A DNA stretch of 64,000 bases from NCBI GenBank assembly GCA_053919585.1, contig CM132790.1; one strand, written 5' to 3'. Positions within the stretch are counted from its first letter, which is position 1. Every line of letters begins with the position of its first letter. Of the stretch, positions 3,690 through 62,200 are shown one piece after another. The translations under genes and the position numbers were made by a program. The notes under the pieces were generated by a model. It saw nothing but the letters and a program-made list of their open reading frames with translations, was not told where the DNA came from and did not search any database. This DNA comes from Euprymna scolopes. Its lineage: Eukaryota.

Positions 3690-3915
3690 TGTTTATTTAT
3701 TTGTTTGTGAAGTATTATTCGCATCTTTTTATATTTGTTGTTTCACGACGCTTGGGGCAACTATTCCTCTGGCCCTCGTCAGGTTGTTAAAAGATCCAGC
3801 GTTCCTATCACGTCGCGGTTAATAACCTGACGAAGGCCAGATGAATAATTGGCCGAAACGTCGTGAAAAAGCGCCCATAAAGATGAGGATAATAGTTCAC
3901 AAATAAGTAAATAAA
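3690..3915. mobile_element. Inverted pair of ~100-bp repeats carrying a minimal hammerhead-like core (Penelope-like pLTR type)
   Basis: 3690-3790 is an imperfect reverse complement of 3819-3915. The right arm reads CTGACGA-A-GGCC-(12 nt)-GGCC-GAAAC-GTC (3827-3862); the left arm has a mutated GAAA. Confidence 0.65.
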
Positions 3916-4575: not shown

Positions 4576-6442
4576 TGTAAGGATGAAATAATGAAATTAA
4601 TTTGTTGTGTCAATATAGTAGTTTATTCACACATATGTAAGGATGAAATAATGAAATTAATTTGTTGTGTCAATATAGTAGTTTATTCACACATATGTAA
4701 GGATGAAATAATGAAATTAATTTGTTGTGTCAATATAGTAGTTTATTCACACATATGTAAGGATGAAATAATGAAATTAATTTGTTGTGTCAATATAGTA
4801 GTTTATTCACACATATGTAAGGATGAAATAATGAAATTAATTTGTTGTGTCAATATAGTAGTTTATTCACACATATGTAAGGATGAAATAATGAAATTAA
4901 TTTGTTGTGTCAATATAGTAGTTTATTCACACATATGTAAGGATGAAATAATGAAATTAATTTGTTGTGTCAATATAGTAGTTTATTCACACATATGTAA
5001 GGATGAAATAATGAAATTAATTTGTTGTGTCAATATAGTAGTTTATTCACACATATGTAAGGATGAAATAATGAAATTAATTTGTTGTGTCAATATAGTA
5101 GTTTATTCACACATATGTAAGGATGAAATAATGAAATTAATTTGTTGTGTCAATATAGTAGTTTATTCACACATATGTAAGGATGAAATAATGAAATTAA
5201 TTTGTTGTGTCAATATAGTAGTTTATTCACACATATGTAAGGATGAAATAATGAAATTAATTTGTTGTGTCAATATAGTAGTTTATTCACACATATGTAA
5301 GGATGAAATAATGAAATTAATTTGTTGTGTCAATATAGTAGTTTATTCACACATATGTAAGGATGAAATAATGAAATTAATTTGTTGTGTCAATATAGTA
5401 GTTTATTCACACATATGTAAGGATGAAATAATGAAATTAATTTGTTGTGTCAATATAGTAGTTTATTCACACATATGTAAGGATGAAATAATGAAATTAA
5501 TTTGTTGTGTCAATATAGTAGTTTATTCACACATATGTAAGGATGAAATAATGAAATTAATTTGTTGTGTCAATATAGTAGTTTATTCACACATATGTAA
5601 GGATGAAATAATGAAATTAATTTGTTGTGTCAATATAGTAGTTTATTCACACATATGTAAGGATGAAATAATGAAATTAATTTGTTGTGTCAATATAGTA
5701 GTTTATTCACACATATGTAAGGATGAAATAATGAAATTAATTTGTTGTGTCAATATAGTAGTTTATTCACACATATGTAAGGATGAAATAATGAAATTAA
5801 TTTGTTGTGTCAATATAGTAGTTTATTCACACATATGTAAGGATGAAATAATGAAATTAATTTGTTGTGTCAATATAGTAGTTTATTCACACATATGTAA
5901 GGATGAAATAATGAAATTAATTTGTTGTGTCAATATAGTAGTTTATTCACACATATGTAAGGATGAAATAATGAAATTAATTTGTTGTGTCAATATAGTA
6001 GTTTATTCACACATATGTAAGGATGAAATAATGAAATTAATTTGTTGTGTCAATATAGTAGTTTATTCACACATATGTAAGGATGAAATAATGAAATTAA
6101 TTTGTTGTGTCAATATAGTAGTTTATTCACACATATGTAAGGATGAAATAATGAAATTAATTTGTTGTGTCAATATAGTAGTTTATTCACACATATGTAA
6201 GGATGAAATAATGAAATTAATTTGTTGTGTCAATATAGTAGTTTATTCACACATATGTAAGGATGAAATAATGAAATTAATTTGTTGTGTCAATATAGTA
6301 GTTTATTCACACATATGTAAGGATGAAATAATGAAATTAATTTGTTGTGTCAATATAGTAGTTTATTCACACATATGTAAGGATGAAATAATAAAATTAA
6401 TTTGTTGTGTCAATATAGTAGTTTATTCACACATATGTAAGG
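4576..6442. repeat. Tandem array of 31 x 60-bp units
   Basis: Unit TGTAAGGATGAAATAATGAAATTAATTTGTTGTGTCAATATAGTAGTTTATTCACACATA. All units are identical except a G>A at 6393; the array starts and ends with TGTAAGG. Confidence 0.99.
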
Positions 6443-20773: not shown

Positions 20774-21340
20774 TGTGTGATACATCGCACCCCTGGGGGA
20801 TTCATCTATACTTCGTCCCCGAGTTTGATGGTCCCTGTTGTCTCGGTCATCATGTTTGTCGGCTCAACCTTGGGATGTCTCCAGGAGTACGTGAATATCG
20901 ACAGGTGTGGAACTGTCTCTTGCACTTGTCCCGATCTAGGCGACGGATTGTACAAATAGACAGCTTGCTCGGGTGAGGTGGTATCCTTCTCTGTTACTGC
21001 CTTTATTGTCCGGTGGTTTCTGTCCACAATCTCGTTGTCACTGGCTCTATAGGTAGCTCTGAAGAATTGACGGATAATCCATTTCTTCATTACATCCGCA
21101 ACTATTACCGATCTAAATGCGATTCCGTTGTCGGATAGCAGCTCTTTCACCGGAGCTCGCTCCAGAGACACTATGTCGAAGACTGCCTCTATTTCACTAG
21201 ACTCTCCATAGGGCAAAGCGGCCGGGGCCGCAGTCGATCATTGTTATGTAAATCCCACCTCTTTAATGGTTGACAGCGACTGCCAATCTTTCACAGGTCC
21301 CAGTCACACTTAGTTCTCCAGCTTTGTGCGCGCTTGAAGG
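20773..21340 (-). pseudogene. pol: Gypsy integrase fragment
   Basis: YITMIDCGPGRFA, then ORF 20806..21216 ELLSDNGIAFRS...RATYRASDNEIVDRNHRTIK...IKLGDEV (rve D-D-E region). Confidence 0.85.
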
Positions 21341-21704
21341 TTGGGTTTCCCGTAATTGGATTACAATATTCAGAAGGTTGAAACGTAGACCTCTGATGTA
21401 GGAAAAGGAGACCATGTAGTGTAGTCTAAGTTGAAAGTTCTGGGTTTTATCTTGTTTTGATTATTGAGTTTATTTATAATATGAGTAGAGGGGTTGTGGG
21501 AGAGTTAAGCAGGGTTCTTTAGAGCAGGGCATTGTTGGGATAGACAGCTTATGTGAAAAATAATAAGTACAGAAGGAATAAATTTGAAGACCAATGAACA
21601 AGAAAACCATTGCAGTTCTCAGTAATATGACACCGAGAAGTTTCACCAGAAGTTACTGAATGTGTGAATTCTGTGGTTGTTTGTCGTTTTATAAAAACCA
21701 CAAA

Positions 21705-21805
21705 CAACCAAAGAATTCGCACATAAGCCTGAAAAATCCTAGAGTGAATGAAACGCGGAATATTCAGTGTAGCTTAATCGCCATATATATTTTATAACTT
21801 ACTAT
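21705..21805 (+). mobile_element. Solo copy of the Penelope pLTR hammerhead-like repeat seen at 36150-36468
   Basis: ATAAGCCTGAAAAATCCTAGAGTGAATGAAACGCGGAATATTCAGTGTAGCTTAATCGCCATATATATTTTATAA matches the 36.2-36.5 kb copies and also ends in (TA)n. Confidence 0.85.
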
Positions 21806-22520
21806 ATATATATATATAATACCCGTGACCTGCAGAATAGTGTGTACATAAATTATGCCAAAAACATGTGCGCCTGTGCGTACAACAATGGTCACCACTT
21901 TAACCATAAGAAATCGCATTACTTAATATTAGGAGAACTACTGATTTGCAAAAAAATTAAATGCGATATTCGTTTTCGGCATGCCAGAAAACGTAAACAA
22001 GTGGTAATTTTAAAGGAGAATATTCAGGTGGAAACTAAGTAAAAATTTACCAAAAATTTTCCACAACTTCTATATCTATATCTGCTTAAAAAGCTACATT
22101 ATATTAAGCGTTGATCATTCGTGCCTTATAATTTTTCTGAGGTCTCTTCCACCGAAAAGCTTTGTAAAAAAAAAGAAGTACGACTTAACAAAACCAGTTT
22201 GGCATAACTTTCTTATCACAAGTCAACGGTTATAAGTTTTGCTTTTTTTAATAGGCTAAAATATCTATTGTTTGCATCATCTTCAAATAATAATAAACAT
22301 TTGCAATTAATTTTAAAGTCTTTAAACTTCCAACTATGAAATGTAATACAATAAAAAAAATGGTAAATAACTTAAGTAAATTCGTAGAACAGTAACTGCT
22401 ATTGCCTTTGGTTACATTTACTTATACGGTTTTTGTTATTTTATCTTAAGAAATATTATGTTGATAATTAAGTATATTATGTTTATCAACACAGTTTCAA
22501 CGACTAGGCAAGCTGATCTG

Positions 22521-22607
<87 letters not shown>

Positions 22608-22611
<4 letters not shown>

Positions 22612-22915
22612 ATCCACATACAGTACTGTTTCGCTCATCAGTGCGGCTAAACAGGCAACTGCCTCAAGCCAGGATCGAAACCTCAAGGCTTCTCACCAGT
22701 ACGCTATACGGCTGATGCTGAGTGAGTACTGAATTAACGATTTTTTGACATCGTCCAAATGCCTCCGCTCGATTTGTTTACACAAAGAGCGTCGCTTAAT
22801 ACGCTAATAGCAATTTGCATATCACTTCCCAATATGCTCAACCCAAGATAGGGAGCATTATAGTCATCGACATACATTACTGTTTCGCTGTTTCACAGCT
22901 CAACATTGTAGTCTA
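22608..22915 (-). ncRNA. Retrozyme-like unit: two type I hammerhead motifs 254 nt apart
   Basis: Copy 1 (22646-22614): CCGCA-CTGATGA-GC-GAAA-CAGTACTG-TA-TGTGG. Copy 2 (~22910-22868): ATGTTGA-GCTGT-GAA-ACAGC-GAAA-CAGTAATG-TA-TGTCG. Pol III A/B-like boxes lie between them. Confidence 0.7.
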
Positions 22916-23519
22916 CATTGCATAGTGCAGAATCGACTATTGATTTTATAAAAATAATATCTGTAAAAAATAGTTTCACTTAAAGTTTAAAATGCAAAAA
23001 TCAATCATTAGGGTTCAATTGTGAACTGAAACGAAACATTCATTTACAAACACACCTCTGTCTCATAAAAGAATCTATAGTTGACTTTGTACGCAGGGCC
23101 TTTCTGCTTGTACTGTGATAAATCTTCTTAAATAGACTTGTGATATTTGGCTGTATTAAGGTGTCAACTTTAGAAAAATTCGAACTTTCTTCTTTAATCG
23201 AATTTTTCTATTATCGATTTTTTATCCTTATCGGAGACATTCTGATACAAAACATCCGAAAGAACATTCCTAGATATATAATGGATATTCGAGGAGTTAT
23301 CAAAGTGTAACACGCATTTTTAGATCGTCTGACTTATACAAACATTTATTTACAATCAGTTTAAGTTGTATTTTGGTTCAAAACATATTTTGTACGTTTT
23401 CCTTGGACAGTCTAATTAGGAAATTACTGGTATAGTGAATAACGTGTAAACATTAATTTTATGGTTATAATTATTGACTAAAAATTATAATCCTTTTCTA
23501 AACAACACTTTTGCGTTTC

Positions 23520-23840
23520 TTTGTTTTTACAAGGCGTCATTTCTTATCAAGGCCCAGATGTCACTCGAAGGCAAGGCTTAATGAGTGTAAAATAGTTAAT
23601 TGGAGCATATCGTAGTAATCGTTAGTAGTGAAAATTTGGTAAATTGGATTACTTAAGGAAACGGCTAATCAGCAACTTGTTTACGTTGGCTTGAAAACGG
23701 CAATAATGCAGTCAGATAGAAAGCAGGCAAAAGCAACAGAGTTCCATAAGCGTGCAGTTCTAAGAAAAGTAGCTTTGTTCTTTGAAACCATGTTTAGGTT
23801 TAGACACAGAAAAAGAGTGGAGGAAATTATCGATAGTACT
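23520..23840 (-). mobile_element. 3' fragment of a Jockey/CR1-like LINE
   Basis: Shares TTATCAAGG...GTAGTAATCGTTA...GAAAATTTGGT...GTTCTAAGAAA with 24505, 30990, 39325 and 45345; A-rich tail on the minus strand. Confidence 0.75.
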
Positions 23841-24504
23841 TTTTGTTGCTATAACTATTTTTAATTATCAACATTTATTCTAATGCAAAAGATTAAAATC
23901 AATTTATTTTCGTTAAATAACATGAGCATTTAAATAACCGTTATGAACCCGTCCGGGGACATATACAATTTCCAGTAAAATATACAACGTTTATCTAAGC
24001 GAGTTTATCTCAAAACGTACGTAAGCAATGTACTTTTCTTTATTTTCCCGTGTGTGCTTCTCAATACACATTGTTATTTAAAACGTACTCTCTTGTGATT
24101 TCGAATTCTTATTTACAATTCGAACAGTGGCAACAATAGACTAGTCGGAAAAATATATGAATTGTTTAGCGATTGTTGAAATGATATAAAGAAGTTTACA
24201 TGAGAAAAAAATGTTAAACTCGGGACATAAAATTAGAACAAATATCAACAAACAAATGTAAATTCAAAGAAACATATGAGAAATGATCGAATGTATCGAA
24301 TGAATAAAACACGTATTCATGTGCGAATAATAGGCATTAATAATAAGTGAAAATTAAAATGTATTCACATAAATAAGAAAAGAAAAATAATGTTTTAAAA
24401 ACTTAAATATATTTTCTAATGAGATACAAAATAATTTTGTGATTATTCGATTCGTATTTATGATGTATCATTCGATATATGTAATTTCTGTAGTATAAAT
24501 TTTC

Positions 24505-26110
24505 TTTTTTTACTTGAGAGCCACTACTTATCAAGGCATGAAAGCTGCTTGAGGCTAATGGTTAATGAATGTAAGGTGGTAGTGTAGTAATCGTTAATGG
24601 TGTGAATTCGGTTGAATTCGAAAATTTATGGGGGCGGCTCAAGAAGAATTTGTTGTTATTGGATTTGAGGGCTACTACGTTGTATTTAACAGGGAAGCAG
24701 ATCAGCGAACAGAGTTACACAGACAGATAGTTCTGAGAAAGAAGCTTTGCTCATGGAATCTGCATTTAGATTTAGACACAGATAGAGAGTGTGGAGAAAT
24801 CGTACATAGTGGTTATAGTTAGTTGAGTATTTTTGTAAAAGTTTGGCAAGGGGGAACCATAGATTGGGGTTCAGTAGAACACTTGCTGTGAAATAGACGA
24901 TAGATCATAAACAGGCTCGCAAGGTCTTTTCTGTGGGAAAGAGGTTTCATAGACGAAAAAAGGCATCCCCTACTTGGTTTCGAAACCGGTTTTGAACGCT
25001 ATCAAGATTGTATAGGGTTCGCCAAGCAGCTCCTGCCCAGAAATGGCAACAGTACTCCATTTTCTGACATACCCGACTGTTATAAAGATAGAGGATTGCA
25101 TCAGCAGTGAGATACCTATTGGAACGGTAGCGCGATCCATCCATTTTCCAACGATCGTGGCAACAGATTTGATGTACGTTTTTCATTTAAGATCAGTAGT
25201 GAAAGTCAGTTCCAGAAGATTGTGAAGACATGGAGCATCCTTAAGACGAGAGGCACTCATTTCAATTGGGTTTTAGAGCAATTATGAGAAAAAGAGAGAA
25301 GCTTGGTTTTCGATGCATTCACCATGTTACCAAGATCAGAAGAGAAAGAATCAGAAAAGTATTGGTGATTGATGGTCTTTAAAGTGTTGGCATAGATTTT
25401 GGTATCTATTGCATAAATATATATGAATTATCTAAGAATGTTATTTGGAAGATAATTGATGTAAATAAGGAAGAGAGTTGGACTCAGGCTGAAAACCTGA
25501 GGTAAGCCAGAATGCCGCCGAAACCAGTAGTTTACTGGGATCTAGGTTTTTGATAAGCTTGGCAATACAACGTACATATATTTGTATGCATCGTGGTGGG
25601 GTTTTTTTTTCAGTCACCGGAGACAATACTGTGGGTAGGCGGCCCTGATCGTAAAGGATAGAATTTGCTGCAATGTTCTGTTTAGGATCCTGTTTTTCAT
25701 CCGTTAAAACTGGTGGGAACCAAGCTCATGCTCAGCTATTTTAAACCTGACGTGGTAAGCATACTAATCTCTTGCATTTTTTATTACGCTTTTACAATAG
25801 TAGCTAGCAGTCCTAAAGGTTGTCTTGGTTTCACAGCGTTAATTACGTTCAAAGCAATGGAAATAATGACTTCTGTGGGCAGCATCACATCCTAGGGTGA
25901 AATACGGTGGGCTGTTGGGCTCTTGGATGGTATAAAACGGTAATAATTAATCATGAAAACAGGTCAGATACTTAAACAGACGCGTTATTTTGAACATAGA
26001 GTGCAGAGGTATATCTGATATAAATGTTTGGAAGTTATCACAATCAGCCATAGAGTATTGATATGCAGTATTATAGAGAGGTACATCTGAGAACTTAATA
26101 ATTCTGTTTT
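24505..26110 (-). mobile_element. Jockey/CR1-like LINE, degraded RT and 3' end
   Basis: ORF 24947..25186 LYLYNSRVCQKMEYCCHFWAGAAWRTLYNLDSVQNR is a typical RT C-terminal thumb. IAKLIKNLDPSK lies upstream and there is an A-rich tail at ~24505. Confidence 0.8.
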
Positions 26111-26126
26111 CATCTTATATATATAT

Positions 26127-26179
<53 letters not shown>

Positions 26180-26499
26180 AGTATACGTAATACCTCAGGG
26201 AGATGAACGCCTCTGCCTTGCATAGTTCCAGGTAACCCTTGGGCAAGGTGTCGTACTTGTTAGCCTTTCTCTTAAGGTCTGGCGAGTTACTATACTGTGA
26301 GAACTATATATATATATATATATATATATGCGTGTTTGCTTGCTTGTGTGTATGCGTGTGTATATGTCCAGCTGCCGGAGAGGTTATACACCGTGACAAT
26401 AAAACATGCACACCCTGCCACTGCTCATTCATATTACTACTTCGGTTTGTCACTGTGCAATCATAAGCATGTTATGTCGCAATCATAATGTGCAGATAT

Positions 26500-29400
26500 C
26501 TTTCTTTCCGAAAGTCCTAATGCGATAGGTAAGTAGTAATATACATATACTTGACGGACTGGAAGTGCACATAAGCGGTCAGTGATTTATCTAACGTAAT
26601 CGAATAAACTGCTTACAGTGAGGAAGCAACTTCGCTGGATGATCTGGTGTCTGGGCAGCAATCTCTAGGGATACACTGCTCAGCACTGAACTTAAGAAGG
26701 GTCTAGAAAAGGTGACTGAAATATTGTCTACTCATTTATTCGCTGGTCAATTTCCTGCGGTCGGAAGCTGCTCCAAAATTGAAAAATTTGAAACAAGGAA
26801 AATCCAAATTTCATCAGGAGAGGAATAACCTAACTGTTGCTACGTGGAATGTGAGAACTTTGTTAGCTGTACTAGATAGTAAAAGACTTGAGCACAAGAC
26901 AGCTATTATTGCGGGATAGTATATACAGTATAGACAGTATAACATTATCTGAAACACGCCTGAGTGACGAATACAAATAGATGGAAGTGGGTTCAGAATA
27001 CACTTTTCCTAGAGAGGAAAGCCATCTAGGCTAAAGCGAGAAGGCTGGGTTGACTTTGCAGTGCGATCAGATTTGGTGAAGAGGATTGAACAGAAAAACT
27101 GTATAAATGACAGAATCATGTTAATTCATCTCCTTCTTGCAGACACTATCTGTATATGCTCCTACCATGACGAAGACACCATTACGGCTTTTTATCAAGA
27201 TCTCAGCCGTACAGTTTCTTCTATTCTCTTATCTGATAATATCTTACTCGTCAGTGATTTAAATGCTAAGGTGAGTGAAGATTTCCATACTTGGGACAGC
27301 AAGGTTAACAATAACGGTCTGCATTTTCTTTATCTCTGCACTCAATTTGTAACACTTTCCTCGGCCACAAAGAAGTCCATAAGTTTATTTGGACCCACGA
27401 TCGTTCAAAACAGGACCTTGATTGTTTACATTATTTCCAGGAGGGCAGACTTGCAAGATGTTTTTAGTGTGCGTGTCATGCGTTGAGCTGCGTGCAGTAC
27501 TGATCACTTTTTGGTACGAAAAAAGCTTAAAATCTGTATAAGTGTAGGTCAGGTGGTGTTAAGATTCCCAGGCGAGTTTATGTATCTAAAATGAATGATC
27601 TAAATGTATGTGAAAAATTAAAAACTCTAGTTAATTCTACTGTTCTTGATGGATCGTGAAGGCATTTAAAAAAACACTCTAAATGTAAATGTTCTTGGCT
27701 TTCGCAAATCTAAGCATCAGGATCACTTTGATGATAATAATTATGAAATAACTTAACTGTCAAATGCTAAAAATTAGTTGCATCATAAAATGTTTTCTGT
27801 CTCTCATGAAAATCTGGAATCATCCCAACAATCGCTTAAAGCAAACAAAGGTCTTCTTCAAATGCGATTCTGCCAAATTAAAAATCAGTGCTTAGCTAAA
27901 CTATCCAATCAAATTCAGATGTCTTTCGATCGTAAAGATTCCAAGTGTATCATTTGCTTAAAAACACGTTTGCTCCTCAAACATTGTAAGCATCTCCCCT
28001 ACTCTCAAGTGATGGAACTACTTTTATAAAGGATCACAACAAGATTAACTTTCGTTGAACTGAACATTACTCTGATCTCCTTGACAACCCCATTTGATGT
28101 TGATGAACATGTTATCAATAGATTTTTACCACAACAGTAACTTACCCATAAAATGTCTGAGTGCCCATCTGAGAACGAAATTAGAGATGGAATCAAGGTA
28201 ATAAATATTGAAAAGGCCCAAAGGCTTGATGGTATTCCTGTGGAAGTCGTCTTACATAGAAATAATAAGCTTGTTCGTGAATTTTTTCATCTTATTACTG
28301 GTGTCAGGAAGGGTGTTCCCTATCTATCAGGACTGGGTTGATGCGATTCTTATATCAATGTACAAGAAAAAGGGGCTTACGACAGACTGTGGGAGTTATC
28401 GTGGGATACGTTTGTTTGAAGCATTAAACAAAGTATGTTCCAAAGTTCTACTCAATAGATTATTAAAGTATATTTGTCCGTCTGTCATTCCAGAATGTCA
28501 AAGTGGGTTTCGTCCGGGCAGAAGAGTTATGGACATGATTTTCTCTACCCGGCAATTGCAGGAGAACGCTACGGAACACCGTGTTCCACTTTATTAGTGT
28601 TTTGCTGATTTTACCAAGGCATTTGATACTGTGAACAGAAATGCGCTATGGACAATTCCAGGAAAGTTGGGATGCCCACCTCAATTTCTACGGTTACTCA
28701 GGGAACTCCACACTAATATGAATGCTCGCCTAAACTTCAATGGATTTATATCAGAACCTATCTCAGTTTACAATGGCATAAAGAAGGGTGATATACCAGC
28801 ACCTACACTTTTCTCTATTCATTTTGCAACTATGCTTTCGTATGCCTTTAACGATTGTTTTCTGGATGTTTATTTGCGTAATAGAACCACAGGTAAAGTA
28901 TTTGATCTTCGTCGTTTTCATGCTTCTACAGGGGTCTTTCAGCACCTGCTTCGTGAATGCAGAGTATGCTGATCTTATGGTCCATAGTAAGGAAGGTATG
29001 GAGGTATCATCGATTTGTTTTCACAGGCCTGTATAAAGGTCATAGTTTGTATGCGGAACCATATATTTTTGTCAACGACCAGTGGCTTGCTGTGATGTAT
29101 TTGAGTAGCGCTCTTGCCAGAGACAGAACCCTCGATGATAAGGTCAACTACAGGACACAGCATGCCACTAAGGCTTTTGGTAGCTCAGAGAGGTGAGTAT
29201 GGTCTGACAGAGGTATAACACTTCGTATAAAAATTAGTGTCTATCTTGTATTTTACCATTCTTACTTTACTCTTCTGAAGCCTGGAAAACTTATGGTAGA
29301 TATAAAAAGGTCATGGACAGAGTATACCAGTAATTTCTGAGACACATTCTGGGCATCAAGTGGAACTCTTTTACACTTGATACGGATGTTTTCATGCGAT

Positions 29401-30237: not shown

Positions 30238-32769
30238 GGCTTCGCCTGGTCGTCAAATATGCTTAAATATGATGATTTAATGTATGCGATTTCGTATAAA
30301 TTATTATGGAGTCGTGATTTTAGCAGTGAACAAAAAAGGAGTTGGGTGCAATCAGCTGGAATCGAAACCGAAAGCAAAACTGCAGCATTCAAGCTGGTGA
30401 CGTCACGACTTTATAAGTATATGGACTGATTAAAAATAAAGTAAGATGAATGTACAAAATGTTAAAGGATTTTTTTTCAATTTTGACATATTTCGGACTC
30501 CTTGAAAACGAAGACCAATAAAAGAACAGTCTATAAAAAGTCAAATAATTCGAAGCTAAGATAGATTTTGAAAATATGGAGACAGACACACAGACAGATA
30601 GACAGACCGAACAACAGACAGCTTGGGCCGTATCGTAAAATACTCCTAGATATGATATTTTAATTCGTCCAGATTTCTTATATATTATTATAGAGTCGTG
30701 ATTTCAAAAGTAAAATAAAAGTATTTTGATGCCATCAGATGGAATCGAAACCAAAAGCAAAACGGTAGGGTTCAAAGTTCCCACTATACCGAAGTGACAC
30801 GCATACGAACTGATTTAAAATAAATTAAGATCAATGTACAAAATGTAAAACGATGATTTCAAATTTTCTCTTTTTTTTTTTTTTTTGACACTTTCACAAA
30901 CTATTTTAACGGGCTAAAGACCTATACAAGAACGGTCCATGAAACATCCAATCATTTGAGATACCTACCACCGCCCTGCGACCTTTAGTTTTTTGTTTTT
31001 TTTACATAGGCATCACCACATTATCAAGGCCCAGAGGCCACTCAAGGATAAGGGTTAAAGAGTGTACAGTAGAAATTGGACAATATAGTAATCATTAGTA
31101 ATGAAAATTTGGTAAATTTGATAACTTATATGGAACGGCTCATCAAGAACTTATTTACTTTAGACTTGAACACAACCATATTGTAGTCAGCCGGTGGAGA
31201 TCGAGTTTAAAAATATGGAGATAGGCAGAGAGGCATAGTGCCTTTTATATTGTAGTCTAGCGGTGGCCGCCTGGTTTGCCCAGGCGTAAAATACGCTTCA
31301 ATGTGATATTTTTATTTGTCCTGATTCGTTTATATTATTATAGAATCGTGATTTCAAAAGGAAAAAGAAAGTATTTAGTTGCCATCAGTTAGAATCAAAA
31401 CGGTAGCATTAAAAGCCAGTGACGTTTCCACTATACCGACGTGACACGCATATGAACTGATTTAAAATGAACTACCATTACCACTGTATCAATGAGACAC
31501 GCATATGAACTGATTAAAACTTAAAAAATTTAAATAAACTAAGGTGAATGTAATAAAGATTTTCTTCGATTTTTACCCATTTTTAGACCCCTAAAAACTA
31601 TTTAAATCAGCAAAAGACATATGTAAGAACGACTCATGAAAATCCAATCATTTTAAAGGACCCTAGCATCGCTCTACAACTTTTAGTTTTGGAAGAGATA
31701 GAGTTTGAAATTATAGAAACAGACAGCCAGACAAACCGACCGACAAACAGACATAGTCTTTTTGTATATTAGACTTGCAGGGGGCGTCCAGCTTTTTCCA
31801 GGCCATAAAATACGCTTAAACATGGTATTTTAATTTGTTAAGATTTCGTATATATTATTATAAAGTCGTGATTTCAAAAGTAAAATAGTGTATTTGGTTG
31901 GCATCAGCTAGAACCGAAACAAAAACCAAAAACCAAAACAGCCGCGTTCAAAGTTGGTGACGTTACCATTATACCAACGTGACACGCATACGAATTAATT
32001 AAAATAAACTATGATGAATTACAACATGTAAAACGATGATGTCATATTTGTTCTCTTTTTGACTCCTTAAAAAAAACTATTTTAACCGGCTAAAAACCTA
32101 TACAAGAACGGCCCGTAGAAAATCCAATCATTTGAGACCCTACCGCCGCTTGACTATTTTTAGTTGCAAAGAAGAGAGAGAGTTTGAAAATATGGAAATA
32201 GACAGACAGACAGACAGCTTTTTATATATTAGATTATAGAGTTGTGATTCCAAAAGTTAAAAAAAAAAGTTTGGTGCCATCAGATAGATCGAAATCGAAA
32301 ACCCAACGGTAGCATTTGAAGCCGATGTTGTTACAATTGTTCCAACATAACACTCACACGAATTGATTGAAAAATAAACTAAGATGGAGGTACAAAATGT
32401 ACAACGATTTTTTTTAATGTTGACCCCTTTTTGATCCCTTTAAAACTTTTTAACGGGCTAAAGACCCATAAAAGAACGGTTCATAAAAAAATCCAATCAT
32501 CTGAGGCCCTTGCGCCGCTCTGTTATGGTACTATCGTTTCTGGGGAGATTTACTTGGTTGAGGAACGTCCTGTCAATGCAACCAGCTCCCCGGGTGTTAG
32601 ACACGATATCCAACGACAGGCACATGGAAACAGCAACACAACGGGTCGATATGTCAAAAGGGCTACGTCATTGTGCCACCCTGCGACTTTTAGTTTCGGG
32701 GGAGATAGAGTATAAAAATATGGAGAAAGACAGACGTACAGACAGACAGATAATCTTTTAAATATTAGA
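30238..32769 (-). mobile_element. Tandem array of five non-autonomous Helitron-like units (~400-550 bp)
   Basis: The block ATTATAGAGTCGTGATTTCAAAAG...CCATCAG..GAATCGAAAC recurs at ~30300, 30685, 31335, 31855 and 32235. Minus-strand 5' ends read TCTAATAT followed by (GTCT)n. The 3' end is a hairpin CGCCTGG/CCAGGCG (31268-31286) followed by CTAG (31257-31260). Confidence 0.75.
30990..31192 (-). mobile_element. Jockey/CR1-like LINE 3' fragment nested in a Helitron unit
   Basis: Highly similar to 45345-45545. It splits the unit motif TTTAGTTT|CGGNGGAGAT, which is intact at ~32690. Confidence 0.85.
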
Positions 32770-34415
32770 TTAATACTTTATGTTTATAACTATCATAATA
32801 ATGTGAAGAGAACATCAAGGGAATCTCATGATTGGCTATCTAATATCTTTTCCTTACAGTAAATAATTTCATCTAAATATTATTTGAACAGGTAAAACGA
32901 ATGTAATTTTAAGTTGAATTTTATTAATATCTTATTAGGAACAATTTTATTTGTAATCAGTATTATCTCAACTTTGTGATAACCAGCAATATCAGATAAG
33001 CTAATCCACATAAAATAACATTAGAAAATATCACATTTTATGCATATACTTTCAGTATTTACTTCAAGAGAAAGAGATATGTAATACAGCTAGATAATGT
33101 TACGAAAATATATACGGAAATTAAGCTACACAGATTATTCCGCGCTTCATCAAATATATGTAATTCATGTTATCGTGTGTTTTGCATGCAGTATATATTT
33201 AATTACGATAGCTAACCCATCAGATTCATTGTTACTTCCGCCCACGTTTTAATGATTGCATTAACCGATAGCAGGGCTTCTCTCAAGCAAGGTTCGGCTT
33301 AATATTACGTCTTTATCGTTACGTTTTCTAAAGAGNNNNNNNNNNNNNNNNNNNNNNNNNNNNNNNNNNNNNNNNNNNNNNNNNNNNNNNNNNNNNNNNN
33401 NNNNNNNNNNNNNNNNNNNNNNNNNNNNNNNNNNNNNNNNNNNNNNNNNNNNNNNNNNNNNNNNNNNNNNNNNNNNNNNNGACTGATACCCACTTGTAGA
33501 TAAAGGTTTATATTACGTTTTGATGATCAATTGAACGATAAAGAATATTCTAAAAGGAATTGTATGTATTATGAGGATGGTTTATAACGATTATTCATTT
33601 TACATTGGAATTGAAGAATACTCTGAAGGAAATTAGCCAAGTTTTAATGCATTCGACAGATGGGACTTCAATGTCTTTATACGATGTTACGATGCTATTT
33701 TTAAAAATTGTGTAGAATGTGATTATGTATAGAAAAAGGTCGCAAATGTATTAATTTAATAGAAATCATATTTGTATTTTACATCGATTGTATATTGCTA
33801 CTATGTAGTTAATAGAAGCTTGGCTCAGAAGGTAAACACTTTTTGTTAAAATAAAAATATTTATCAACATATTTCGATTGATGTACTTTTAGATTATATC
33901 GCGTTATAGACGTTTACGTTCAAGTACTTTGAGGAAATTATGACATATGAAATGTTGTAAAGAGTTTGGACAGAAAGGATACTGCATTTTGATCTACGCG
34001 TGAGGCCAAAAAGTGTATCTTATTTCTTGTTTTGTCCATAATGACAGCGACATTATATAATTTTTTAAAAAAATCTTTTTTCTTTACTTTGCGATCACAT
34101 ATTTAAAAGGTGTGTATTATTATTTGTTTCCTCTTTTATTATTTAATGTATTTAAAAGGTATCTTTTGAAAATGGTTTACTGAATATTAGTAGCTTTTTA
34201 GATACAAGAGATCCCTGCGGCATGATTATAGCTATAGGTGTAATAGGATAAAGAATAGGCAAAATACTATTCTCTAATCAGTAATTAAGATTCAGAGAAC
34301 ATATGGGGTTTCTATTCAGATCTGACTTTTTATCAGACAGATATATCTGTGTAATTTACAATCTCCTCAATTCAATAGTGCAGATCCTTTCTAATTCACT
34401 TTAAGAATAAATTGT

Positions 34416-36149: not shown

Positions 36150-36231
36150 CGCATAAACCTGATTATCCTAGCGTGGATGAAACACGGAATATTCTGTGTA
36201 GCTCAATCGCCATATATATTTTATAACTTAC

Positions 36232-36319
<88 letters not shown>

Positions 36320-36468
36320 ATTTATAAAATATATATGGCGATTAAGCTACACTGAATATCCCGCGTTTCATCCACTCTAGGACTCTTCAGGCTTATAAGA
36401 GTCCTAGAGTGAATGAAACGCGGAATATTCAGTGAAGCTTAATCGCCATATATATTTTATAAATTACT
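36150..36468. mobile_element. Penelope pseudo-LTR ends in direct-inverted-direct order, with hammerhead-like cores
   Basis: Copy 1 (+) 36150-36234, then (TA)n, copy 2 (-) 36316-36396, copy 3 (+) 36397-36468. Copies 2 and 3 form a ~72-bp hairpin. Copy 2 reads CTGAAGA-GTCC-TAGAGT-GGAT-GAAAC-GCG. Confidence 0.8.
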
Positions 36469-38157
36469 AACTAGCTCTACCTACGTATTGAGCACTTTTG
36501 AAGTAAATACTTAAAGTTTACGCATAAATCTATACTTTCGTATATTAATTTTATGTGAGTAAATAAAGTAGTTATATATATATATATATATACATATATA
36601 TATACATATATATATATATATAAAGAGATAGGGAGATAGGAAAAGGCAATAGTCGATAGAAATAACAAGATAACCCCATTGATGTTGATGGCTGTTGTAA
36701 TAATCATACAAATCTTTGTTTCTATTCGCTTTCGGTAATCGTAAGTCCAATAACACGCTTCGCTTGTTGCAGGTCGATTTTCAATCTATTTCCTCTGAGA
36801 ATTGGATGAGAGAGGACGATAGAAAAAGGAAACGAAAAAAACATAAAAGCTGAAATCAGTTATCTTTGTTCAAAAAATGTTCTGCTCATCTAATTTGATA
36901 TAATTTCAGTTTGTTTTTTATAAAAAGTATATCAACCGATTTGCTGAAGTATCTTTTTATTTTTCGTTGAATAAAAACGTTATTTAACTGTAGTAAAATG
37001 GTTATCTTATTACTGCTATGTTTTATCTCCTGTTGATAGAATTGGTCAAGTCACATACCTTCATTTATAAACGGTTCTCCTTCGTGTGTAATCTTGTATT
37101 AATGGCCGGATCATCATTGATGAAGCGATTCAGCCAAGAAATATATAATCCTGCAAATATACCCTTTTCTCTATCGGATAGAAAAAGCAACAGTGAGATA
37201 AACATGGATGGAAAGATAAAGGAGAGAGTAGCGAAAAGATAAACAAACCTTACAATTGATGGTCTCCGCTGTGCATAATAATGTAGATGATTGTAATTGT
37301 ATGTAACAGCAGTTTATTTGCAGTTTAAACGATTCTTAACAATAGAGTAATGCATATTTATTGCAAACTTCCGGTTAGAATTTAACAAATTTGCAATCAA
37401 GTAAAATATTTTCATAAAAATATTCATACGATAATTAAATTTACTTTTACTTTTGCACATAATTCGATATATACAGCGCAAACTCCCTAACTAACACATA
37501 AAACTGTTATTTATCTTATAAACCTCCAGGAAATATGTTAATAATTGCTGAATCTAAGAAATAAACTATGTACAATTATTCCCCAGAGTGTCAGTTCTTT
37601 TGAACGAGTTGTAGTAGATGTATGTTTCTTCTGGAATTTGATCTACATGTGCTATGAGAGGTTGTGGTTAACATTTGAACACGCCAAACAATATTGGTAC
37701 TTGTTGAAACACGTTGCATTTTTTTTTTTTTTTTGTGAATTTGCGACTTTTGATTCACCAAATTCTTGACGATATATTAACTTTAGAATATCTCCCCAGA
37801 TAAAAAAAACAACATGCCAATTGTAAATCGACTTAACATTACACTCTCTAATGGCCAATATCTACGTAACTTGTTTGTGGGTCACCTGAATATTAGATGA
37901 TTATGTCACGTGAGAATCACTGTTCATCTCTAATTCTTAGTGTGTAACAAGGTGAATCAGGTATGACGCTATTAACACCTGACATTTGCACGGGGTGAAT
38001 GTTGATTACACATTTGTAATCATCATCATCATCATCATCATTTTGCGATCGTAGTCGAGATGATGGCGTTCGGTAAACTCCATATGGGTGTTAATGTGTG
38101 CGCCCGCAACCTATACACACATTTGGAAACAGAAGGACTAAAATCATTTTCTACCTA

Positions 38158-44626: not shown

Positions 44627-45344
44627 AAAACATGCGCCATTTAGCGAGAATATTGTTGCTGTTCTTTTCTTTTATGCTTACACATAATTAGAACTATCAG
44701 AGAAAAAATAAAGACGACTGCATTACAAACATAGAAGAAGTGAATTGTTAATGCATCGCGTTGCTGAGAGGCACTGTCATGACTAAAAATGTTTCTTCTA
44801 CTCACTAATAGATGACCGTGTTGGAAAGACGAACATTTTTGTTCGAACGACAACAATGCTACATAATAATCGAAGAATCCGATTTCTAATATAGTACACG
44901 GCCAAAGTGATAAGTCAGTTTTTTAATTGACGGAATCGATGGCGTCTATTACCTTGTGACTGGGTGGACGACGATGTCATCCGCAGCCACAACATCTGCA
45001 GTGAAATTTCTGTCTGTACTTCATACGGCGATTTCTGTAGATGAGCCGGCGTATAAAGAATATTAAATTATCAAGCGGTACCCTGTCGGGTGTAGATGTC
45101 GCATGTCATGGGAAATAACGACCTTATAGTTCCCAGTTCTTTTTGTTTGAACGTGACAACCTTTTTGCATATACAGAGCCTGGAATACACGATGTACACT
45201 GGTCTGATACTGATCAGACTAAACTGTGCTTAATGATATTGTGACGAAGTTGGCCATATTTGACGATAATAGACAGCCATGCACTGTACACTACTAGGGT
45301 GAAGCGTACCGCACACTAGGCGGGTTGAATCGTTTTTTGTTGTT

Positions 45345-45845
45345 GTTGTTGTTTTTTACATAGGCATAACCACTTATCAAGGTCTAGAGACCACTTGAGG
45401 ATAAGGGTTAAGAGTGTACAGTAGTCAACTGGACAATATAGTAATCGTTAGTAATGGAAATTCTGTAAATTTGTTAACTTAAGTGGAGCGGCTCATCAAG
45501 AACTTATTTACGTTGGACTTGAAGACAACCATATTGTACTCAGCTGGAAAGCAGGAAAACGGAAGACAATTCCAAAGGCCTGCAGTTCTAAGAAAGAAGC
45601 TTTGTTCATGGAATCTACGTTTAGGTTTAGGCACAGATAAAGTGGTGTGGGGGGTTATTGATAGCGTTTTCAGCTAGACGAGTGTTTCTTGTGAAAGTTT
45701 TACGAGGGGGGACCATAGATTGAAGCTCAGTCGAACACTTTCCATGAAAATAACGATAAAGCAGAGACAAACTCGCATCATCTCTTCTGTGAGATAGAGG
45801 TTGCAGGGTAGAGAAAAGGACATCTCCTACGTGGCTACGGTTTCG
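45345..45845 (-). mobile_element. Jockey/CR1-like LINE 3' fragment
   Basis: Same family as 24505-26110 (shared translation VLRKKLCSWNL on the opposite strand); A/CAA-rich tail. Confidence 0.85.
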
Positions 45846-56697: not shown

Positions 56698-57711
56698 TGA
56701 AAAGATAGTTATTCTTTTATTCGCAATAGACTTAGTTTTTTCGGACGTACCTGTTTCCGTTTCGAAATTCATGTCAACGTCCCTACTGATTATGGCGAAA
56801 TTATTTTTCAATCTACCCGTTCACATTATTCTGTGGGTTTATGTCACTTTAAGTGATGATATGAAATAATTTTATTCAATTGCAGAGATCACATTATTAT
56901 TAACATCCCGTTCGGTCGCTTTCTTCATTATAGAATATAAATAGCTGTGCAATTCCTCTCATTACAGGTGAATGATTTAAGCGCTGCATCGCTCTCAGTT
57001 CGGTCTATTCTTGTGTTTATTAAATACTCCTTTGATCGCTGTTCTTTTCGCTCTGTGTCATACGTTCAATTTATTCAAAATGGAGCTGAAATAATTTCAT
57101 TAAATTAGTTCATACAAACAACAACAATGAATCAGAAGAGCCTAACGTATACATACAGGTTATAAAATCTAAGTTTCTCCTGTAGAGTATAAAACGGTAT
57201 TTATATAGTGTTGCACACACTTTTTGCTACCTAGACATATTACATAACTGATTAAGTCCAGAGTCTGGCTCATATATAACACTAGTAATAAGAAAAATCG
57301 ATATGGGTTTAATAAGTCCATGATATTCAAATGTCATATCAAACTTTAAGCTAAACTGGATTATTAGTTTACAAAATACAGTTATTTAGGTAAATCTTCT
57401 GAATTTCCTGTGCAAAGATTTCTGATAGAAAATATTATTCAAGTGCAGCAGTGACTGAAGAAGTTCTATTCGAACACTGATCAATATAGGCAAGGTGTGT
57501 ATGTGCGTAGTTTGACAACATGTTTCCATTCAGGTATATGTAATGGATTTTCCTTGTTTTATTAGTCTTTTTCAAAAACTTTTTTTTCCGACGAGACTAA
57601 TTAGCATTTCTTGTACAATATGTGTCTTTTATTTCTCGAGTAGTTAAGACTTTCGCATCAAATCATAATAGGGATTGGTTGGGCTTAATGTTTTTACATC
57701 TTTTCATAGTT

Positions 57712-58472
57712 TTTACATATTTTCATTTTTACAGTTTGGTTTGTAACGTTTTACATCTTTTCATTTTTTCAGTTTGGTTTGTAACGTTTTACATCTTTTC
57801 ATTTTTACAGTTTGGTTTGTAACGTGTTGCATCTTTTCATTTTTACAGTTGGGTTTGTAAGGTTTTACATCTTTTCATGTTTATAGTTTTGTATGTAACG
57901 TTTTACATCTTTTTATTTTTATAGTTTGGTTTGTAACGTTTTACATCTTTTCATTTTTATAGCTTTGTTTGTAACGTTTTACATCTTTTCATTTTTACAG
58001 TTTGGTTTGTAACGTTTTACATCTTTTTATTTTTACAGTTTGGTTTGAAACGTTTTACATCTTTTCATTTTTACAGTTTCGTTTGTAACGTTTTACATCT
58101 TTTAATTTTTACAGTTTAGTTTGTAACGTTTTATATCCTTTCATTTTTATAGCTTTTTTGTAACGTTTTACATCTTTTTATTTTTACAGTTTGGTTTGTA
58201 ACGTTTTACATCTTTTCATTTTTATAGCTTTGTTTGTAACGTTTTACATCTTTTCATTTTTACAGTTTGGTTTGTAACGTTTTATATCTTTTCATTTTTA
58301 CAGTTTGGTTTGTAACGTTTTATATCTTTTCATTTTTACAGTTTAGTTTGTAACGTTTTACATCTTTTAATTTTTACAGTTTGGTTTGTAACGTTTTACA
58401 TCTTTTCATTTTAACAGTTTGGTTTGTAACTTTTTACATCTTTCCATTTTTACAGTTTGGTTTGTAACGTTT
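57712..58472. repeat. Minisatellite of ~20 x 38-bp units
   Basis: Consensus TTTACATCTTTTCATTTTTACAGTTTGGTTTGTAACGT with scattered variants. Confidence 0.97.
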
Positions 58473-59244
58473 TAGGAGCATCTATACTAATGACATAGTA
58501 CATACGAACATAATAAGATATGTATGTTAAATGTAAGGCCTTTAAAAATACCACTTACGTAATTTATCGTATTAGTTGGGCATCAATTAATGATAAATTG
58601 CTTGAAGGTGTGTTTTAAAGGGTTGTAGACAGCACAAGAACAGTCTTCCTTTTGAAAATTCAAATATTTCCGATTTACACAAAATCTGCTCTACATCTAT
58701 TGAACATCAATTAAAAAAAATTCCACAAATTTTATTTTATTCTTTGGTTTAAGTTTTACATTTTTAACTTTTTTTGCAAAAGTTAAAATCATTTAATGAA
58801 TTTTGTATAACACTCTGAATATAAATTATAGACATAAATATCATAGCGTGATTGTGATTTGTATCTTATTAGTCATGATATAATGTTAGCATTGTGAGGT
58901 ATTCAATGATCGGTTCATTTGTTTAGGATTTAATCCCGTACAAACAAATATATAAACACGTACAGGATATAACGATTTCTTTATAAACATAAACATGAGT
59001 TATTCAGCATGTGTGTATTTAATACTGTCTTTCTATGCTTAACATAAAATATATTTCGATAGTTTTGCAGTATATTATAGTAGTAATTATAATAGTCATN
59101 NNNNNNNNNNNNNNNNNNNNNNNNNNNNNNNNNNNNNNNNNNNNNNNNNNNNNNNNNNNNNNNNNNNNNNNNNNNNNNNNNNNNNNNNNNNNNNNNNNNN
59201 NNNNNNNNNNNNNNNNNNNNNNNNNNNNNNNNNNNNNNNNNNNN

Positions 59245-62200
59245 AACACAAAACAAATAATAGAGTTTATGAACTAAAAAAAAACAAAGCTCCCATCATT
59301 AGGGACCAAGAGCAGAAGAAATTAAAAATGAAAACAGAGAAAGTTAACAAGCTCCTCCCACACGTCTAAACAATTTAATTTACTAAGGCACCAAGATCGT
59401 AAGTATAAAGTTCAAAACAGTAAAACAGCCATGGAATAATGGACCGACAAAACTTGGATGGAAATGAGGCTAGAAAACCAAATCAACAAACATAAAAAGA
59501 AGCCAAAATGATAAACAGGAAGAAAGCGACATGGAGAAAATTGAAAATTGGAAATGTGACCATAATCAAGAAACAGGAAGATCTGAATAAAGAAAATAGC
59601 AGCAAAATAAGGGCGACCGAGATTATATAGATTCAAATCAGAACAATGCAAGCAAAACAGGACATTTGAAAATAATGAAAGGCAATTCTACCAAAACGTG
59701 AACGGAGGAAAAACAAAAACAGAATGACCAAACATAGCAGAAACAAAACTCTAGTCAGATATGGGGAGAACGAGAGGAACATAACAGAAATGACGAATGG
59801 CTGAAAGACATGAAAGAAGAGCTACAACAAATCGAAGGACGGTGAATGAAATCATCAATGAAACTCTAAAGAAAACCATACGAAAAATGGCTAACTAGAG
59901 AGCACCAGAGCACGACGGAATACATGCATACTGGTTCAAAATAACTCACAACGCAACACGAAAGACTAGCCAAAACATGAGAAGATGTATACAAGAAACA
60001 AACGTGACAGATTGGATGACAAAAGACAAAACTACACTGATACAGAAGGACACAGGGAGAAGAACCGCCCCCAGCAAGTATAGGTTTATCACGTGCTTAC
60101 CCACTATGTGGAAAATATTAACAGCACAACTGACGGAACCAATCTACCACTCCTTAATTATCGTGGAGTTCTCCCCGAGGAACAGAAAGGATGCCAGAAA
60201 GGAAAGAGAAGAACACATGATAGATCATAAGATCCTAAAGGAGATAAACAGAAGGAGAAAGAATTTAGCCATGGCATGGATCGACTACAAAAATGCGTAC
60301 GACAGGATCCCACAAACATGGATAATAGAATGCTTAAAAATGTATAAAATACTAATCAGGATCATCAACGTAATAGAAAATACCATAAAAACATGGAGAC
60401 TGGAATTGACAGCTGATGGACAACACATAACAGAAATTAACATACAAATAGTCATCTTCCAAGCAGACTCACTATCACTATTGCTGTTTATAATAGCCAT
60501 GGTACACCTGAACAATATACTAAGAAAGTGCCAAGCTGGATACAAGTTCTCTTATACAGAGGAAAAAATGAACCACCTAATGTATATAGACGACCTGAAA
60601 CTTTTTGCAAGGATCGAAAAAGTACTGGGGACACTAATAAACACTACCAGGATCTTCAGTCAGGATATCCAAATAGAATTTGGTGCGAAAAAATGCGCAC
60701 TACTAGTTATAAGGAAGGAAAAACTAGAGACATCTGAAGGCATGGAACTACCCAACCAAACGGAGATGGGGGAACTAGGGAACAAGACGCCTATAAATAA
60801 CTGATAGTTCTAGAAGCATACGCCATCAAAGCCAGAGAAATTAAAGAGAGAACTGGAAATAAAAAATCTAATCAGAACAGGAAAACTTCTAGAAACTAAA
60901 TTATATAGCAGAAACCTAATAAAAGGTATAAATACATGGGCAGTATCACTAATAAGATACTAAGGATCGTTCATAGGATGGACCAACTAAGAACTGAGAC
61001 ACCTCGATCAGAAGATCAGAAAACTCATAACCATGCACAATACACTACATCCAAAGGACGATGTTGACCGACTCTACGTGAAAAAGAAAGAGAACTAGTC
61101 TGTATAGAAGACTGTGTGCATGACACAAACAAAAAATAATCTGAAAGATGCATAACGCAGAAGACGAAAGAATTAACATGGCAGCGAAGGACACTGAAAA
61201 AATTGACAAAACAGAAAACAAAGAGATAAAGGACAAGACAAGAAAAGCAAAATGGAAAAAAGCAACTACATGGAAGATTCATAGAGATGACAAAACATTA
61301 GAATACCGAAAACACTTGGACATGGATGCGGAAATGCTGCATACGCCGAGAAACTGAATCTCTAATAACCGCAGCACAAGATAACTCGATGAGAAAAAAC
61401 CATATCAAAACAAAGATCAAGAAAACACAAGAAAACAATAAATGCAGACTCTGTGGGCAAAGAAACGAAAGGATGAATCATTTAGCAAATGAATGCAGCA
61501 AACTGGTCCCAAAATAATACAAGAACAGACACGATTAAGTAAGAAGGGTAGTCCGCTGGGAATTATGCAAACAACTGCATCTCTAACGCACAGACAAGTG
61601 GTACAAACATAAGCTGGCAACAGTACTTGAAAATGAGAATCACATAACCTATGGGAGACGAACTTACAAACTCATAAACCCATCCAAACAAGAAACCAAA
61701 TTTATTAATAATTAACAAGAAACAAAAATCCTGTCAAATCGTAGAATTTGCTTTTCCAGCCGACCACAGTGTGAATATCAAAGAAAAGGAGAAACGGAAC
61801 AAATACACAGAGCTAGCCAGAGAGCTGAAAGGGATATGGAACGTGAAGAAAATCAAAAATATACCTATAAGAGCACTAGGAACAATCCCGAAAAACTTTG
61901 ACGGAGAAATTGGAATCAGAGGAATGGCTGGAAAAATATAAGGAGCAATAATAATGAAAACAGCTTTAATATTAAGGGAAACCCTTTAATGTGGAGACTA
62001 ACACACATGAACCACAAGCGCAGGCCAGACAAACTGCAGCAGGAACAAAACATGAGGCGCTACAGTGAGTCAAGAAAATTAAAGCTGCATACCTATAAGT
62101 TCTCTAACCCCAATCTCCCATAACTACGTCCTTGCCCCGCCCCAAAAAGAATGAAACCGAAGTAGAGTAAAGGAGGAAAGAAAAAACCGAAGAGTGAGCA

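Follow-up and report, generated by a model that had tools for sequence, protein, structure and literature searches.

A dead copy of a very abundant hammerhead repeat with a tRNA-like segment, lying beside a (TA)n microsatellite

What is a locus in which two hammerhead ribozyme motifs, each broken in a different place, stand 254 nucleotides (nt) apart on the same strand? The 64,000-nt stretch of DNA that we analyzed (hereafter, the window) is AT rich, with many microsatellites and decayed retroelements, and has such a pair on its minus strand. An initial annotation made from the letters alone had read the pair as the borders of a decayed retrozyme-like unit, with hammerheads of complementary defects and with Pol III-like boxes between them. 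The motif coordinates and the strand given there all check out. The defects, the boxes, and the length of the unit required a different reading.

The downstream type I hammerhead region covers 22606 to 22649 on the minus strand, as placed by our motif check and by family contigs. Read 5' to 3' on that strand, it has the CCGCA arm of stem I (22646-22642), the core CUGAUGA (22641-22635), a GC in place of stem II, GAAA (22632-22629), a palindromic stem III (22629-22620), GUA (22621-22619), and the UGUGG 3' arm of stem I (22618-22614), with the cut predicted after 22619. The 3' part of the upstream hammerhead (22860-22902, minus strand) was placed by a 31-nt direct repeat and by family contigs. 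It comprises stem II (22899-22887), GAAA (22886-22883), stem III (22883-22874, with one change at 22877), GUA (22875-22873), and the 3' arm of stem I (22872-22868), with the cut predicted after 22873. The 31-nt repeat is common to both motifs and is identical at 29 of 31 positions (E 7e-8 within the window). The monomer between the two predicted cleavage sites (22619-22872, minus strand) is 254 nt in this copy. Within it, on the same strand, lie a tRNA-like segment with internal Pol III-type boxes (22660-22725; A box 22706-22696, B box 22682-22672) and a non-coding body (22726-22859), where family depth is highest. A (TA)n microsatellite (22524-22608), the probable insertion target, adjoins the 3' arm of the downstream hammerhead. 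The GC content of the unit is 44.5%, and its longest open frame is 52 amino acids (aa). A comparison of the window with itself found no second copy of the unit.

Evidence for a family came from the assembled contigs of 4 of 24 runs (X1, X2, X19, and X22), aligned to 22606-23300; the remaining 20 runs, including five further organism labels, lie outside this evidence. X1 and X19 belong to organism A and X2 to organism B, while X22 is an oligo-dT RNA run labelled mollusc metagenome. We treated X1 and X2 as DNA-type and X19 and X22 as RNA-type, the type of X1, X2, and X19 being a program's guess. Aligned contigs, which cover the unit plus the neighbouring repeat, numbered 16,485 (X1), 5,505 (X2), 83 (X19), and 1,330 (X22). 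That neighbour (22918-23277) is a separate high-copy repeat adjoining the unit. It has a 55-aa frame (23040-23207, minus strand) that gave no Pfam match and whose end we take to resemble a pogo/Tigger transposase.

Mean summed depth over the unit was 410,000 in X1 (range, 5 × 10^4 to 1.1 × 10^6) and 57,000 in X2. For comparison, near-identical flank contigs had depths of 13.7 (X1) and 2.3 (X2), and the last bin had depths of 46.5 (X1) and 4.1 (X2). The resulting ratios of unit to flank or last bin, 0.9 to 3.0 × 10^4, give the order of magnitude only, as summed depth is not a true copy number; the family size is very roughly 10^4 copies. Only 650 of the 16,485 X1 contigs were at least 99% alike to the window, and the window copy is therefore a divergent member of its family; in X22, 131 of 1,330 contigs reached this level, which makes a mollusc the probable host. 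Protein searches did not settle the host, and base composition and microsatellites give no more than an impression of octopus. Searches for family copies found none in viral contigs, prokaryote genomes, or phages, or, with a family-specific pattern, in metagenome contigs. The locus is a damaged copy of a very abundant non-coding mobile repeat family.

The family contigs complete the hammerhead that the window copy has in pieces. Among the matches listed, loose ends before 22633 continue with stem II in 239 (X1), 53 (X2), 3 (X19), and 30 (X22) contigs. Loose ends behind 22902 (136 contigs in X1, 38 in X2, and 16 in X22, again among the matches listed) run on into an undamaged core, with the CCGCA arm and the unit's tRNA-side end. 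A joint leading from 22897 back to 22633, a step back of 265, occurred in all four runs (3, 3, 1, and 3 contigs among the matches listed), and its shorter side was 51 letters in X1 and 37 letters in X2. At 22877, T is replaced by G in 93 to 99% of depth, which restores the stem III palindrome. Because the loose ends, the 265 joint, and the majority letter at 22877 together complete the motif, we assign one complete hammerhead to each family unit. Judged from these contigs, the family-level type I hammerhead is intact in sequence, with core, stem II, and stem III in a single motif. Stem I may vary. At 22869, the letter that pairs with the CCGCA arm makes up 40% and 51% of DNA-type depth and 73% and 76% of RNA-type depth. 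Because the samples are not alike, this contrast can be no more than a hint. With only 40 to 76% of depth carrying the pairing letter, stem I may be weak in some family members.

The window copy, then, has two separate lesions. The downstream motif has lost its stem II, an 11-nt hairpin, between two AGC repeats; the other lesion is decay or truncation at the 5' end. With stem II absent from the downstream motif and two of seven core positions changed in the upstream one, the window copy does not qualify as a type I hammerhead. In a double hammerhead linked through stem III, the core and stem II are contributed by the same copy. Neither copy here has both, so the defects are not complementary as had been proposed.

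The 5' end of the copy is less sharply defined. The stretch 22903-22915 (minus strand) may be what is left of a core and a stem I arm, or it may mark where the insertion begins at its 5' end. The upstream core (22906-22900) matches the hammerhead core at five of seven positions, and similarity 5' of 22902 is weak. Over four lengths, 298 to 1,710 of 30,000 random segments scored as well; with another scoring, 4,850 of 19,613 did (25%, against 1 to 6% with the first). Family contig alignments end at 22899-22902. The altered core may be either decay or the junction itself.

We found that the segment ahead of the hammerhead is tRNA-like in the family and damaged in the window. At 22699, G is replaced by T in 92 to 100% of depth, and the family A box then matches the consensus TRGCNNARYGG at every position; exact matches to this consensus number one in the whole window (both strands, 128 kb). 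Loose ends behind 22682 carry 18 extra letters and then rejoin the window sequence. Among the matches listed, this insertion was present in 176 (X1), 41 (X2), and 21 (X22) contigs and, at 22681, in 2 X19 contigs; one X19 contig has 8 extra letters at the gap between the boxes. The window copy lacks these ~18 nt between 22683 and 22682, which correspond to the anticodon loop, its 3' arm, and the variable loop. The unusually close spacing of the two boxes, to which the initial annotation had drawn attention, is this deletion; in the family, the spacing is tRNA-like. Adding back both deletions (254 + 11 + 8 to 18) gives a family unit of ~273 to 283 nt, so the 254-nt figure holds for the cut sites of this copy and not for the family.

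The 30-letter consensus of the loose ends (minus strand) agreed with positions 21 to 50 of Escherichia coli tRNA-Asp at 21 of 30 positions by hand count, without gaps and with the anticodon in register. Asp was picked after the loop CUGUCAU had been noticed, and without the six matching loop letters the agreement is 15 of 24. This loop closes a 5-bp stem that includes three G-U pairs. An unconstrained alignment of 22725-22660 with an unrelated tRNA-Thr opened a single 19-nt gap at the same place between the boxes. The B box departs from the consensus GTTCRANNC at one position, the first G. Taken alone, the window copy is not significantly tRNA-like: 599 of 3,000 shuffles scored as well against tRNA-Thr and 622 of 3,000 against tRNA-Asp, and ARAGORN and Rfam called no tRNA in it. 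Its box pair is likewise at chance level, with 17 pairs in the window having at most one mismatch per box. The boxes are supported because other family members carry the full A box and tRNA-like spacing, not by the window copy itself. Taken together, the contigs indicate that the family carries a tRNA-derived A/B-box segment just ahead of the hammerhead, a predicted Pol III promoter.

Contigs of all four runs also define the order of the unit. Long contigs run continuously from the body into the tRNA segment (22683-22874, 22633-22859, 22683-22824, and 22638-22848), and the joint contigs run from the tRNA segment through the hammerhead into the body. With both kinds of contig present, both junctions of a head-to-tail circle exist in the DNA-type runs, and the order of the unit is circularly permuted. 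From these contigs, we take the order to be body, tRNA-derived A/B-box segment, and type I hammerhead. No contig spanning two complete hammerheads or a long array was found among the aligned contigs of the four runs. The contigs support the proposal that the locus is a decayed copy of a multicopy head-to-tail family with an intact type I hammerhead.

On its upstream side, the window copy reaches at least 30 nt beyond the predicted cut site; on its downstream side, it stops 13 nt past the other, inside the (TA)n tract. Since it extends past both cut sites, we infer that its template was a circle or an uncut multimer and not a cut linear monomer. A simple repeat follows the same unit end in 10 X22 contigs. 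We looked for a target-site duplication at the insertion and found none. There is no run of four T on the minus strand in 22633-22897, an absence that is not rare by chance.

The RNA-type runs gave no sign that the unit is enriched in RNA. The ratio of unit depth to neighbouring-repeat depth was 11.5 and 12.1 in the RNA-type runs versus 20.2 and 22.3 in the DNA-type runs, and the RNA-type depth profiles tracked those of DNA (Spearman, 0.94 to 0.96). Thus, there was no RNA enrichment in the two RNA-type runs, of which X22 was oligo-dT selected and X19 has no library type on record. These depths fit DNA carry-over or passive transcription. Because poly(A) selection would lose non-polyadenylated circles, the RNA-type runs neither show nor exclude them. 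One X19 contig (269 letters, depth 164) is near unit length; contigs cannot show ends or circles.

Several readings compete for this locus. That the motifs are chance matches in AT-rich repetitive DNA is refuted by the family contigs, and we give it next to no weight. A blank result with Rfam models, which found neither hammerhead nor tRNA at the locus, and the chance-level box pair would fit it. The Rfam blank says little, because at the gathering threshold Rfam also misses intact hammerheads in six control loci, and intact control motifs reach only E 0.003. Against chance stand the 31-nt repeat, the other copies that complete the motif, and a type I hammerhead descriptor with two sites in the window (22641 and 36390) and any match in only 2 of 100 block-shuffled windows. 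It is very improbable, too, that the locus itself is active, with a 2-bp GC stem II holding the core of one motif together with the other motif's GAAA, stem III, and cut site, in the manner of a minizyme, so that RNA is released. Engineered dimeric minizymes have a 2-bp stem II and the form core-GC-GAAA. The downstream motif has this form, and its palindrome can form a 10-bp homoduplex (-15.4 kcal/mol). However, folding gave pair probabilities near 0 for stem I of both motifs, for stem III, and for any cross-assembled hammerhead, including cross stem I and cross stem II, while upstream stem II is closed at 0.8 to 1.0. A circular fold of 22633-22897 was modestly stabler than shuffles (z -2.0, 150 shuffles). 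In addition, a single cut gives no circle, the stem II deletion, flanked by 3-nt repeats, looks like a product of slippage, and the promoter segment is damaged as well. In the folding model, the window copy does not fold as a hammerhead, and the 2-bp dimeric minizyme, its one route to activity, is unlikely. Nothing at this locus points to a function; it is a dead copy.

Two further readings accept the family and explain it differently, and we consider both unlikely. In the somewhat stronger of the two, the family is an ordinary tRNA-derived short interspersed element (SINE) with the order head, hammerhead, body, moved as linear RNA by a LINE; the hammerhead would be a passenger, the window copy a truncated chance dimer, and circles would not form. 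A tRNA-like head, dispersed high copy number, a simple-repeat end, and the lack of RNA enrichment all agree with this. In the window copy, however, the sequence stops after the hammerhead and the head lies close to the 3' end, and the order is circularly permuted, as seen in the body-to-head contigs of four runs and the joint back 265. The slightly weaker reading is that the unit is not spreading independently and is a pLTR of a Penelope-like element left after 5' truncation. The pLTRs of Penelope-like elements bear type I hammerheads, and (TA)n is preferred by some clades (PMC8557442); a preprint proposes that animal retrozymes derive from Penelope pLTRs (bioRxiv 10.64898/2026.07.22.740005), and the window has further hammerhead-like motifs. 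Against it, other copies have, 5' of the intact core, the unit's own tRNA-side end and not unique sequence, no open reading frame of at least 120 aa adjoins the unit between 21237 and 27013, and helix III is canonical, not the minimal form described for pLTRs in the accessible part of PMC7761336.

Our preferred reading, to which we assign a probability of about 0.7 with its full mechanism, is that the locus is an inactive insertion of ~1.2 units, at a (TA)n tract, from a high-copy non-LTR retrozyme with a tRNA-derived Pol III promoter like that of Sm-alpha. Under this mechanism, Pol III would start just ahead of the A box in a copy of at least two units and read on, as the lack of a T4 stop in the unit would permit. 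Successive hammerheads would excise a monomer carrying the promoter at its 3' end, as described for Sm-alpha, and the monomer would be ligated into a circle. A Penelope-type reverse transcriptase/endonuclease could then prime at the (TA)n tract and read more than one unit from either the circle or an uncut multimer. The inserted copy would later have lost stem II, the anticodon arm, and the 5' core and died. We identified no autonomous partner element. Cleavage as a dimer, which the initial annotation had thought favoured by the palindromic stem III, is possible and not required: the short tetraloop-capped helix III is the usual invertebrate form and is said mostly to cleave as monomers (PMC7229834 and PMC7761336, accessible parts).

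A looser pattern recovered at least 119 metagenome loci with 125 motifs, of which 108 belong to one family with a unit of 241 to 243 nt. The unit length of this comparison family falls within the range reported for stony-coral retrozymes, and its loci (L001-L119, e.g., L019 at 1001-1275, L061, and L119) have intact type I hammerheads, often with simple-repeat ends. It has the same stem III palindrome as the window unit, with otherwise no BLAST similarity at E 0.01 beyond one 17-nt stem III match. Four of the motifs have too short a flank; among the 104 others, a simple repeat comes next in 46 (against 106 of 2,080 random positions), the next unit in 20, and neither in 38. This second family thus has two features of the window unit, the simple-repeat end and the stem III palindrome. 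Neither an A nor a B box is present in L019, the one unit that we checked, and the tRNA segment sets the window family apart from this family. tRNA-Thr(GGT) was called near a hammerhead in 2 of 38 loci scanned (L033 98-172 and L041 217-290); the L033 tRNA is not common to other loci and is probably a coincidence. An nhmmer profile built from 85 comparison motifs finds both window motifs (E 3e-6 and 0.057). This match is not independent support, because the pattern that selected the comparison loci came from the window.

The window has other features of the kind expected in repetitive DNA of this sort. Two related hammerhead-like motifs with a minimal ACGU helix III stand in divergent inverted orientation at 3827-3862 (plus strand) and 3782-3748 (minus strand), an arrangement that the ends of a Penelope-like element would be expected to show. 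At 21723-21818, 33105-33151, and 36153-36469 lies a second short repeat family, which has a hammerhead-like motif and ends at (TA)n; inverted copies flank the microsatellite 36235-36336, and the motif at 36390 (minus strand) passes the descriptor. Tandem arrays lie at 4576-6442 (60-bp repeat, 31 copies, 99% identical, one frame open for 643 codons) and 57711-58474 (38-bp repeat, 20 copies). A dispersed family with copies 70 to 87% alike occupies 23516-23815, 24523-24977, 30990-31194, and 45343-45834. Reverse transcriptase fragments (RVT_1) lie far from the unit, at 28205-28972 and 59899-60804; for the latter, 720 relatives reach E 1e-30 or better, and identity is 50 to 60% in the best of them.

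Our literature search turned up no description of the window family in the accessible parts of the papers covered, including PMC6962438, PMC10886601, PMC4758252, and PMC9115989; Repbase, Dfam, subscription papers (such as a 1994 paper on octopus SINEs), and the supplement of PMC7229834, with its further invertebrate retrozymes, were outside its scope and may hold one. For giant squid, PMC6962438 gives 235 hammerhead matches in the part available. One tentative proposal, which we hold possible if rather doubtful, is that a Penelope-mobilised hammerhead unit acquired a Pol III promoter derived from tRNA-Asp in a mollusc lineage, independently of the schistosome case. Such a self-promoting retrozyme would make its own 270- to 285-nt circular RNA from tandem masters, would have reached ~10^4 or more copies through (TA)n insertion, and would be common to related species. 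If this is true, circle-forming retrozymes and tRNA SINEs can be one continuum. Circular RNA made by ribozymes would then also come from an abundant repeat that would probably be annotated as a tRNA SINE. A non-schistosome family with a promoter of tRNA origin within the unit would also make animal retrozyme transcription directly testable.

We compared the family with three known systems through the accessible parts of the papers cited. Like Penelope-like elements and their non-autonomous derivatives, the window unit has a hammerhead near the 3' end, a partial tandem arrangement, a microsatellite end, and no clear target-site duplication (PMC8557442; bioRxiv 10.64898/2026.07.22.740005), and a microsatellite bias is documented in Penelope-like elements (PMC8557442). 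Unlike them, it has no coding region, and no reverse transcriptase or GIY-YIG reading frame is linked to it (21237-27013).

The family resembles metazoan non-LTR retrozymes in its non-coding unit of 150 to 450 bp, GC content below 50%, one type I hammerhead per unit, tetraloop-capped short helix III, head-to-tail junctions, and insertion of more than one unit (PMC7229834 and PMC7761336). These retrozymes seem to lack promoters and to rely on read-through, with cDNAs longer than one unit predicted (PMC7761336, a 2020 review), whereas the window family has its tRNA-derived A/B segment. The mussel repeat is 350 to 390 bp, longer than the window unit (PMC7229834 and PMC7761336). Non-LTR retrozymes with demonstrated circular RNA are known in coral, mussel, and axolotl (PMC7229834), while for the window family circular RNA is a prediction. 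Of nine predicted Xenopus retrozyme dimers, one cleaved in vitro and eight did not (bioRxiv 10.64898/2026.07.22.740005).

The closest design is found in blood flukes. The SINE-like elements Sm-alpha and Sj-alpha of Schistosoma also have a Pol III-type promoter followed by a hammerhead (PMC6765202), and they share with the window family a tRNA origin, tens of thousands of copies, and a promoter at the 3' end of the cut monomer, which in the window family is predicted (PMC6765202 and PMC2770079). Because the promoter ends up at that end, single copies of the Sm-alpha type cannot propagate. In Schistosoma mansoni, PMC2770079 gives more than 38,000 hammerhead matches and a tRNA-Gln-derived SINE similar to Sm-alpha. 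The tRNA source differs, with Sm-alpha-like elements of S. mansoni scored as Gln(TTG)-derived (PMC2770079) and the window family resembling Asp(GUC), and so does the host, which for the window family is probably a mollusc. Taken together, a hammerhead behind a tRNA-like promoter is a design already known from blood flukes, and the window family, for which we found no description in the papers covered, resembles Sm-alpha in layout and presumed mode of working and is not classed as Sm-alpha itself.
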